From positions 1 through 24,286 of the forward strand of contig JBFFUI010000036.1 in the NCBI GenBank assembly GCA_041571435.1: a stretch of DNA of 24,286 nucleotides, given 5' to 3'. This stretch comes from Sulfurimonadaceae bacterium (lineage in GTDB: Bacteria; Campylobacterota; Campylobacteria; Campylobacterales; Sulfurimonadaceae). The number at the start of each line of letters is the position of its first letter. The stretch's first letter is position 1. A program made the position numbers and the translations under genes. The notes beneath the pieces are model-generated. The model had not been told where the DNA came from, did not search any database, and worked only from the letters and a program-made list of their open reading frames with translations. This document shows positions 5,320 through 7,004 of this stretch, one piece after another.

Positions 5320-6360
5320 ATGAAACCGCAGTACATCATACTGACACTACTGGCCATCTCGCTCTACTGGATGTACCTTCTCTACTACCCTTTTTTGCTC
5401 TCCATCATGATCGCCTCGCTTCTGGCGATCTCCACCGCATCGGCACAGCGTCGTCTGGTCCAAAAGAGCGGTTCCGTCCTGATCGCATCGCTCATCTCGA
5501 CCGTGACCCTTGCCGTTCTCTTTTTTGTACCGCTGGGGTACTTTTTGACGACGTTTACGATCTACCTGAGCAACATCGACCTCGTCAGCATCGAAAAGGT
5601 CTATGTCAAAATGATGGACTGGGCACAGCATCTGCCGCACTATCTGCAATTTGCCCAGCCCTTCATAGAAGACGGACTGCGTGAACTCGAGATCAAGGAG
5701 CTTGCGAAACACACCCTCACCATGGCCGGGACCATCGGCAGCTACAGTGCCAACTTTCTTAAAAATGCCCTCTTGATCATCATCTTCTATTTCTTTTCGC
5801 ATTTTTACGGCAAAACGATCTTTGATTATCTCAAATCTGTCATCCAGCTGCCGCAGCAGGATGCGACACTCCTGAGCTTTGAGCTCTCCTCAATGATGAG
5901 CGTCGTCTTCTACTCCATTTTGACCACCGCTCTCTTTGAAGGAGCCCTCTTTGGCATTGCGGTTGCCTTTATGGGGTACAACGGTCTTCTTTTCGGCATA
6001 CTCTACGGGTTTGCTTCGCTGCTGCCGGTCGTCGGCGGGGCGCTGCTGTGGCTGCCGTTCATGATCTTCGAGCTCTCCATGGGCCACACGGGCAGTGCGA
6101 TCTTCATCGCACTCTACTCCATCATCGTCATCTCGATCATTGCCGATACCTTCATCAAGCCGGTCATCATCAAAGAGATCAACTTCCGTATCGTCAAGTC
6201 GGAGGGGCAGAAAAACGAGCTGCTGATCTTCTTCTCTATCGTCGCGGGGCTTGGGGCATTCGGCTTTTGGGGGATGATACTCGGACCGGCCATCACGGCC
6301 TTCTTCCTGGCGCTGCTCAAGCTTATCGAGCAGCACCAGAAACTGGTGAATGAAGCGTAG
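5320..6360 (+). CDS. AI-2E (PerM/TqsA) family transporter
   Basis: 346-aa polytopic membrane protein with LLPVVGGALLWLP and GFWGMILGP motifs. It sits downstream of ruvB, like amaA in Campylobacter. Confidence 0.88.
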   Translation: MKPQYIILTLLAISLYWMYLLYYPFLLSIMIASLLAISTASAQRRLVQKSGSVLIASLISTVTLAVLFFVPLGYFLTTFTIYLSNIDLVSIEKVYVKMMDWAQHLPHYLQFAQPFIEDGLRELEIKELAKHTLTMAGTIGSYSANFLKNALLIIIFYFFSHFYGKTIFDYLKSVIQLPQQDATLLSFELSSMMSVVFYSILTTALFEGALFGIAVAFMGYNGLLFGILYGFASLLPVVGGALLWLPFMIFELSMGHTGSAIFIALYSIIVISIIADTFIKPVIIKEINFRIVKSEGQKNELLIFFSIVAGLGAFGFWGMILGPAITAFFLALLKLIEQHQKLVNEA

Positions 6361-6413: not shown

Positions 6414-6655
6414 CTCTCATACTTTTTTTTGCCGCAAAAAAAGTACACAAAAAAGCTCTCGTGACGGCTTCGAGCCCGATGGCTATCGGGTACCTTCCTT
6501 CCGCTCGCTTTGTTCCTAAAAATCCCTAACTCGCCTACGGCTCAAACAGAGTGATTTTCTTAACGGAACTCCGCTCACTCCACTCAGCTCTGCAGATGCC
6601 ACGACAAGAGCCAAGCGGTGACGCATCTATTTGAATTTAAAAGCTTTCGCTTTTA
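6414..6655. repeat. Structured intergenic repeat element, copy 1
   Basis: Shares 23-bp (6450-6472), 15-bp (6590-6604), 9-bp (6540-6548) and 13/14-bp (6613-6626) blocks with the reverse complement of 6770-7004, and has the same series of hairpins. Boundaries are approximate. Confidence 0.85.
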
Positions 6656-6769
6656 TGAGGCTGTTGTGAACTCTCGCATTTTTCAGTCTGTACTAGGTTA
6701 CTTGGTGTGTATTTTTTGCATTTGTGCGGTTCCAGCATGAACTGTTTTAGAAGTATATATAAATGGGGA

Positions 6770-7004
6770 TTAAAGCAGTTGCTTTAACATTTTATAATGC
6801 GTTACCGCTTAATAAATTCGTGGCATCTGCAGCGTTGACTGTAAGGAGAGAAAAAGCATCAAAAAACGGCATTGTTTGAGCGTAGCGAGTTTTGTCGTTT
6901 TTAGCGAAGGAACGACTGAAAGGAAAGTAGTCGGTAGCCACCGACCGCGAAGCCGTCACGAGAGCTTTTTCGTTTCCTTTTTGGCGGAACAAAAAGGAAA
7001 GAGA
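6770..7004. repeat. Structured intergenic repeat element, copy 2 (inverted relative to copy 1)
   Basis: Matching blocks at 6948-6970, 6818-6832, 6873-6881 and 6797-6810; hairpins at 6770-6787, 6862-6902, 6930-6945 and 6973-7000. Boundaries are approximate. Confidence 0.85.

Follow-up and report, generated by a model that had tools for sequence, protein, structure and literature searches.

What fills the gap between two convergent genes in a Sulfurimonadaceae bacterium, and why does it seem to be there twice? The stretch of DNA analyzed, herein the window, comprises 24,286 nt (assembly GCA_041571435.1, contig JBFFUI010000036.1, positions 1 through 24,286). Open reading frames (ORFs) at 5320 through 6360 (+) and 7074 through 7904 (−) face the region by their 3′ ends; we refer to them as AI-2E and lgt, labels taken over from an earlier, sequence-only reading of this DNA that have no family search behind them. 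That reading described an inverted pair of diverged elements between the two ORFs and proposed an undescribed structured RNA or single-stranded DNA (ssDNA) mobile repeat. We called the ∼240-nt element of the window pair “E1”; “E2” denotes a second structured module of the longer units in which E1 is often found. E1 is an undescribed, many-copy family of intergenic, noncoding repeats, and it is the fold, rather than the sequence, that selection preserves. We give a probability of about one half to the reading of this family as structured, nonautonomous interspersed repeats of Sulfurimonadaceae and some related families.

Fold and covariation of E1

Copy A of E1 (6414 through 6657, +) and copy B (6768 through 7005, −) are both complete modules, arranged tail to tail. 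A covariance model (R1) built from 56 copies scores them at 252.1 bits (E = 5e-65; nhmmer E = 4e-75) and 229.2 bits (E = 8e-59), respectively. The copies share 72.9% identity over 192 nt (BLAST, E = 1.9e-18), and a search of the window for inverted repeats returns arms of 85 nt and 31 nt for the pair. The details of the original description are all present in the DNA: the identical blocks of 23, 9, and 15 nt; the hairpin CCCGAT-ggct-ATCGGG (6475 through 6490) with its counterpart GTCGGT-ggct-ACCGAC (6945 through 6930); the two terminal A/T hairpins; AAAATC/GATTTT versus AAAAACG/CGTTTTT; the TAAAAGC-N4-GCTTTTA hairpin; and the TCGTG/CACGA closing stem. A recent duplication was rightly discounted, as the copies are 73% identical and are members of a dispersed family. 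The inverted pair is likewise real, but it is one arrangement of the family and not special to this locus.

From 5′ to 3′, E1 begins with the A/T hairpin H1 (copy A 6420 through 6445, +, loop GCCGC; copy B 6973 through 7000), in which five of nine pairs are changed on both sides (double-changed) and 87.8% of alignment cells are paired. The central domain (helices 2 through 10; copy A 6459 through 6604, +) follows, in which the closing stem P2/P2b encloses a three-way junction with P3 and a long, interrupted arm, P4-P7. P3 (copy A 6475 through 6490, +) is a 6-bp hairpin with all six pairs covarying (6/6 double-changed; 98.2% of cells paired). The arm (copy A ∼6494 through 6586, +) spans ∼90 nt, and its tip is variable in length, being longer in some copies. 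The 3′ part consists of P8, the 3-bp helix 11 with an invariant loop of GNRA type (copy A 6616 through 6625, +, GCG-GTGA-CGC; copy B 6799 through 6808, −), and the 7-bp hairpin P9 (copy A 6638 through 6655, +, TAAAAGC-TTTC-GCTTTTA; copy B 6770 through 6787), where five of seven pairs are double-changed and 96.4% of cells are paired. On the forward strand the P8 loop reads GTAA, GTGA, GAAA, or GGAA in 92/92 full-length copies; its stem is nearly invariant, so covariation speaks neither for nor against this helix. A G.U pair within P2 is invariant in 56/56 copies.

The extracted sequences comprise 140 unique copies, of which 92 are full length; the structure was tested on a MAFFT alignment (A2) of 56 nonredundant copies, with 63 pairs in 12 helices and 500 shuffles. 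Standard pairs are formed in 86.8% of cells (shuffled, 75.0 ± 0.4%); 43 of the 63 pairs are double-changed (28.8), as are 458 cells (164), and the covariation score is 0.324 (0.130). Not one of the 500 shuffles reaches the observed value in any of these four measures. The number of further pair types is not above the shuffles (89 versus 86.3; 107/500 reach the observed value). Sliding the pairing partners by one to three columns reduces the covariation score to 0.042 to 0.065 and pairing to 38 to 47%. Folding energies of the two window copies taken singly are ordinary (z = −1.15 and −1.02); the evidence for structure is therefore covariation, not stability. Selection on single-stranded structure, proposed initially from the two window copies, is thus borne out by the alignment.

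No G+C-rich stem with a run of T is found at the element ends, in agreement with the original view that this is not a simple terminator; E1 does not have the makeup of an intrinsic terminator, and of two terminator-like sites between 6250 and 7150 (shuffled, 0.8 ± 1.0) one is the centrally placed P3 hairpin of copy B. Might E1 be a small type I toxin/antitoxin or small-protein cassette with conserved mRNA structure? Open frames of 40 to 66 codons do cross both window copies, and the translated copies cluster together. However, the frames are not the same from copy to copy, and indels and stops interrupt them; for example, a reverse frame of 36 codons in copy A shrinks to 13 codons in copy B (judged by eye). 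Conservation lies mainly in paired columns and loops and does not follow a codon pattern. A conserved small-protein frame was accordingly rejected, the frames being shifted or stopped between copies; E1 does not group with type I toxin–antitoxin systems or small ORFs, and we consider a cassette of this kind extremely unlikely.

Distribution, longer units, and turnover

The genome that contains the window (G000; 2.16 Mb, 66 contigs, 47.7% G+C) has nine E1 copies, on which nhmmer and the covariance model agree: two in the window, two in tandem on contig C33, two on C46, two on C3, and one on C6. One C46 copy carries an insertion of ∼95 nt and the C6 copy an internal deletion. BLAST detects E1 in 15/15 other genomes of the genus, 9/21 other genera of the family, and 1/24 genomes from other families. 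R1 extends this to 31/61 related genomes and at least 445 matches in total, with 2 to at least 35 matches per genome in the genus (15/15 other genomes positive), one to nine in each of the 9/21 positive genera elsewhere in the family, and 6/24 positive in other families; 15/45 genomes outside the genus are thus positive. The copy-number survey that the sequence-only reading had proposed therefore returns a family dispersed across related genomes. When a single genome of each species was scanned for an exact pattern, matches with the spacer length of the family (33 to 35 nt) lay on contigs titled Sulfurimonadaceae, “Helicobacteraceae bacterium,” Campylobacterales, or Campylobacterota; those with longer spacers come from unrelated phyla and look like chance. 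Plasmid and phage collections gave no blastn match to E1, and none of four pattern matches in IMG/VR was upheld by the covariance model.

No Rfam family accounts for these repeats. In Rfam 15, the tmRNA gene (1209 through 1587, +; RF00023, 137 bits, full length) is the only feature in the whole window to pass its gathering threshold. Between 6300 and 7150, eight matches at E ≤ 10 all fall far under gathering and represent noise; IS605-orfB-II, at 15 bits (gathering, 88) and E = 9.6, is at chance level. Six full units from four genomes gave no Rfam match at E ≤ 1, and a literature search returned no description of such a repeat in these bacteria. The claim that the element is undescribed thus stands.

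Both flanks of E1 are also conserved. Upstream of copy A (6390 through 6413, +) lies a semiconserved TTATTGAAT motif, identified with an anchored flank profile of 64 copies; its family consensus, ..CCTTGACTTCTCTC, is situated ∼8 nt before H1. Downstream of most copies there is a segment, “D1,” then one of several alternative middle modules, some of which contain hairpins with compensatory changes (judged by eye), and then E2; as a rule, E1 thus forms the left half of a unit of ∼520 to 540 nt. The 110-nt spacer between the window copies (6658 through 6767, −) reads as a diverged, truncated D1 tail module of copy B (ATCCCCATTTATAT...TGCTGGAACCGCACAAATG), an assignment that draws on weak similarity, judged by eye, to the D1 region after E1 in 34 other copies. 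E2 holds an A/T hairpin, H1′, that resembles H1 but is inverted relative to it, with TA-to-CG covariation at several pairs; CTTGAC/GTCAAG-like motifs lie near the unit ends. Whole units of ∼510 to 520 nt recur in the related genome G002. Two-copy loci are arranged tail to tail as in the window (18), in tandem (8), or head to head (0); tandem copies are spaced by 495 to 553 nt, and E1 also occurs as a single copy. E2 was considered as a diverged, reversed E1 and rejected: the E1 hidden Markov model (HMM), applied to 31 downstream halves without a reverse E1, gave three marginal matches (E = 0.6 to 1), all confined to the H1-like region, so that homology between E2 and E1 beyond this hairpin is unsupported.

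A separate observation concerns the H1 loop, which in some E1 copies contains a mini-insert of ∼45 to 50 nt (CACGAYKCGRMATTTAGT...GCTTTAGC). It is found in G000 on C46 (∼2035 through 2072 and 2587 through 2624) and at nine loci elsewhere (L053, L061, L118, and L143 among them), in both orientations over 12 loci, three of which are overlapping views of the C46 site. A similar sequence occupies the H1′ loop of one unit (judged by eye), and in one G002 copy its reverse complement takes the place of the E1 core. The mini-insert may represent a small nested element with hairpin loops as its target.

How stable are these repeats in evolution? We compared the AI-2E/lgt locus among the 16 genomes of the genus, excluding G005 and G013, whose fetched locus has no AI-2E match. 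Two E1 copies occur in G000 alone; a single full unit, running from the lgt side, is present in G002, and G001 and G003 each carry one copy. In six genomes the spacer measures 190 to 310 nt and lacks the element, in three (G010, G014, and G008) it holds a small extra gene, and in G006 it holds other inserted sequence. Presence at this locus, a comparison that the sequence-only reading had proposed, hence varies. The small gene (loci L174, L164, and L162 in G010, G014, and G008, respectively) is ∼120 codons long in G010; in all three genomes it replaces the repeat, and its product looks by eye like a truncated hemoglobin. The spacer of G015 (L170) contains a short tandem run, GGGTTAAGGGTTAAGGGTTAAG, that is lacking in the otherwise near-identical spacer of G012.

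G002 is the nearest relative of G000, with 97% protein identity at this locus. Even so, 68/227 core positions separate the G002 copy next to lgt from copy B, with 10 doubly compensated pairs, and the two genomes differ at 52/229 positions at the C3a locus; the G002 copies at both loci therefore belong to another subfamily. Three further G002 units sit where the corresponding G000 genes are separated by 28, 72, and 48 nt, and at another locus G002 has an unrelated segment of ∼850 nt with an ORF where G000 has E1. What is observed is turnover, that is, presence/absence and replacement between species; mobility, which the original proposal included, is suggested by these differences rather than demonstrated.

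Where copies are orthologous, they change slowly. The cores of C33a, C33b, and C46a differ between G000 and G002 at 27/652 positions, compared with 145/934 fourfold degenerate sites in seven flanking genes (Fisher p = 4.7e-14), or approximately fourfold slower than synonymous sites for these three copies. Paired (15/341) and unpaired (12/311) positions are equally slow, and 11/13 single changes in stems break pairs; on a short timescale, therefore, the copies show plain conservation, and the compensatory pattern belongs to the deeper divergence of subfamilies.

Purifying selection on the orthologous copies, equal in paired and unpaired columns, and the retention of the fold by every copy despite age and divergence would suit host small-RNA genes, that is, independently transcribed, trans-acting RNAs rather than mobile DNA, whose copy differences would arise by duplication, loss, and recombination. 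This explanation has to contend with copy numbers that range from 2 to at least 35 within one genus, with nonorthologous subfamily copies at two loci whose flanking proteins are 97% identical, and with the modular tandem and inverted layout (18 loci tail to tail, none head to head), which is typical of repeats; neither promoter nor terminator is evident. We judge it unlikely, even when the orientation data described below are added in its favor.

Strand, orientation, and candidate movers

RNAalifold predicts mirror-image structures on the two strands of E1. We lean toward the forward strand (+ for copy A) as the functional one, without regarding the matter as settled. It is favored because of the invariant GNRA loop of P8 and the invariant G.U pair of P2; GNRA loops are characteristic of RNA. 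By hand tally, G.U cells also outnumber A-C cells on this strand in H1, P2, and P9. Three observations pull in the opposite direction. The RNAalifold energy is lower on the reverse strand (−91.2 versus −73.8); the inner arm has ∼94 A-C cells against 23 G.U cells (hand tally), an A-C cell being a G.U cell on the reverse strand; and, read on the reverse strand, the P9 loop is G..A in 64/92 copies and the P7 loop G.A in 63/92. On these sequence patterns E1 probably acts as RNA.

The orientation of E1 follows replication and not the neighboring genes. In the complete genome G003 (dnaA, 387 through 863), 12/14 copies are directed away from the origin, the terminus being placed at the midpoint by assumption. 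Where contigs of G000 have a clear GC skew, 7/8 copies carry their forward strand on the G-rich strand, which is generally the leading strand. Co-orientation with the upstream gene was suggested by 7/9 copies in G000 (rough ORF calls) and was rejected when it disappeared among 29 copies from several genomes, all flanked by 1 kb or more, where the 5′ neighbor is on the same strand in 12 cases, on the opposite strand in 12, and lacking in 5. For the small-RNA genes considered above, this replication co-directionality, independent of the neighbors, is a point in favor, resembling that of highly expressed genes.

Replication polarity would also suit an ssDNA element. Members of the IS200/IS605 family transpose as ssDNA, and the E1 units could be remnants of this sort, nonautonomous derivatives of an HUH (Y1) transposon of the IS200/IS605 or REP/RAYT kind that would leave and enter DNA as folded ssDNA at the replication fork, with their hairpins as recognition sites for the enzyme; the forward strand lies on the lagging-strand template in the 12/14 and 7/8 copies above. 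Each unit end has a hairpin close to it (H1 and H1′), and target-site duplication is not apparent: in 24 units the longest word shared between flanks averages 6.33 nt, versus 6.29 nt for mismatched flanks, although, with element ends roughly placed, a duplication of 2 to 4 nt may escape this comparison. A 260-residue Y1_Tnp (HUH) protein is present in 11/16 genomes of the genus. This gene (RAYT-like; G000 C1:182-961, −) adjoins no E1, however, and is framed by its own perfect 28-bp inverted repeat (148 through 175 and 1001 through 1028), which is unrelated to E1 and occurs nowhere else in G000. Across the genera of the family, Y1 is found in 3/9 E1-positive and 5/12 E1-negative cases; the two are not codistributed. 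The TnpB Zn-ribbon is present in only 1/16 genomes of the genus. Moreover, the E1 fold is much more complex than known transposase-binding hairpins, near-identical copies are absent, and the invariant GNRA loop and G.U pair suggest RNA. On balance, descent from an ssDNA transposon appears unlikely.

Nor is another partner gene apparent at the element. Over ∼113 loci, no recurrent protein family lies beside E1, the largest nonrepeat cluster being three loci. The IS110 DEDD domain occurs in 7/16 genomes of the genus and is absent from G000. The reverse transcriptases (RTs) and HUH/RAYT transposases for which the sequence-only reading recommended a search do occur in these genomes, but neither adjoins E1.

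The RT is of retron type. In G000 it is encoded by a single-copy gene (C52:2515-4095, +) for 527 residues. RVT_1 covers residues 12 through 187, and a hydrophobic segment lies within the long extension at the C terminus; in PADLOC the protein best matches retron RTs (E = 1.6e-43). Proteins of this kind (527 to 550 residues) are found in 15/16 genomes of the genus, the exception being a 56%-complete assembly, and in 0/45 genomes from other genera (E ≤ 1e-20). The start of C52 shares a 141-nt overlap with contig C1, which puts the Y1 gene no more than a few kb from the RT gene; in G002 the two are ∼3 kb apart. Could E1 copies be retron-like template RNAs that mimic msr-msd and are used in trans by this genus-specific RT, which might spread them? 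E1 counts peak in the RT-bearing genus (2 to at least 35, versus 1 to 9), and in size (∼240 nt) and topology E1 resembles the msr-msd noncoding RNA (ncRNA) of a retron, in which a closing stem is joined by a short hairpin for recognition and a long one as template, a resemblance inferred from the general retron architecture. The RT, however, has its own upstream spacer of ∼230 nt (C52:2278-2514), the normal site of a cognate ncRNA and one that could house it, and R1 detects no E1 near the gene in G000; at four other RT loci it gives only a 15-bit partial match and no E1. E1 further differs from retron ncRNAs in that it is not found beside an RT, exists in tens of copies, and occurs in at least 15 genomes without this RT. 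Because the association is confined to a single clade, it carries no statistical weight; the coincidence of the RT with top E1 counts is a lead, not evidence, and we hold a retron-like role to be very unlikely.

E1 as a probable structured interspersed repeat

Among known systems, E1 is closest in kind to bcr1 of the Bacillus cereus group, described in PMC3184786 as a transcribed ∼155-bp repeat whose position differs from strain to strain, with 5-bp direct repeats on either side and a two-hairpin RNA structure kept by compensatory changes. As far as that description goes, both are multicopy, intergenic, variable between relatives, devoid of a gene of their own, and marked by compensatory changes (PMC3184786), which in these respects places E1 among structured interspersed repeats of the bcr1 kind. 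The comparison is one of descriptions and not of sequences, and on this level the differences are equally clear: E1 is ∼240 nt long, with 12 helices and a three-way junction, and is often part of units of ∼520 to 540 nt, whereas bcr1 has two independent stem-loops; E1 is modular, has no flanking direct repeat, and is polar with replication, and its orthologous copies are under purifying selection. REP/BIME, ERIC, BOX, and Correia-type repeats are intergenic, modular mosaics with inverted and tandem layouts that can fold if transcribed (see PMC3184786 and, on stem-loop sequence families, PMC2267715), and E1 resembles them in this. They are, however, simple hairpins of 35 to 200 nt or miniature inverted-repeat transposable elements (MITEs) that bear terminal inverted repeats, and the E1 fold, with its invariant loops, is far more complex. 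No RAYT or insertion sequence (IS) partner tracks E1.

The target-site duplication of a DDE-type MITE is not seen in the 24 units; as to terminal repeats, the units carry the similar, inverted hairpins H1 and H1′ and the CTTGAC/GTCAAG-like motifs near their ends. IS200/IS605 ends, PATE elements, and omega-RNAs share with E1 the subterminal hairpins, the lack of target duplication, and the replication polarity, but no TnpA or TnpB adjoins the ∼113 loci and Rfam gives no match; of the features of an ssDNA element, the replication bias is found and codistribution with Y1 is not. E1 also does not lie beside an RT, as a retron ncRNA would. It is best filed as a new, unusually complex structured interspersed repeat.

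As a structured interspersed repeat, E1 would be transcribed and act as RNA, like bcr1, for example as autonomous small RNAs or as RNA-level insulators or stabilizers between genes. It would spread or be exchanged through a trans-acting activity that is not encoded beside it, through homologous recombination after DNA uptake, or both. Several results weigh against this picture. A scan of the window region gave no promoter-like site. The three pairs of filled and empty spacers in G002 and G000 contain no clean insertion junction and no target-site duplication; filled and empty spacers are unalignable throughout, so that no junction is readable. Copies within a genome are old, with a median identity of 0.68 to 0.79 and few pairs at 0.9 or above, some of which are split matches of one copy, and this is unlike an active transposon burst. 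The estimate of constraint derives from three copies at two loci, and gene conversion could mimic it. Finally, the terminus of G003 was placed at the midpoint by assumption, and tandem or clustered copies are not independent of one another.

E1 joins features that are usually separate: repeat-like turnover, purifying selection on individual copies, an orientation that tracks replication, and the lack of a transposase. A bolder explanation of this combination, and in our view a rather improbable one, is that the E1/E2 units form a new class of large (∼0.25 to 0.55 kb) structured nucleic-acid mobile element that spreads and persists by virtue of its own fold, with no adjacent protein gene. Examples of such a class would be an RNA copied in trans by the retron-type RT, as a bacterial short interspersed element, or a self-processing RNA or ssDNA; the replication polarity, were this so, would conceivably reflect the integration step.

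Structured RNAs of this size and degree of covariation are rare, and E1, with tens of copies per genome, is not in Rfam. Its hosts are environmentally important sulfur oxidizers. Resolving whether RNA or ssDNA is the active form, and what moves it, could reveal a new family of regulatory RNAs or a new route by which nonautonomous elements spread. R1 can serve to annotate several hundred intergenic regions that are now blank. Many copies lie near contig ends, and E1 may explain contig breaks in assemblies.

At L027 (∼640 through 1515), two direct E1 copies 1.1 kb apart flank two small ORFs that, judged by eye, resemble an antitoxin–toxin pair of RelB/RelE type.

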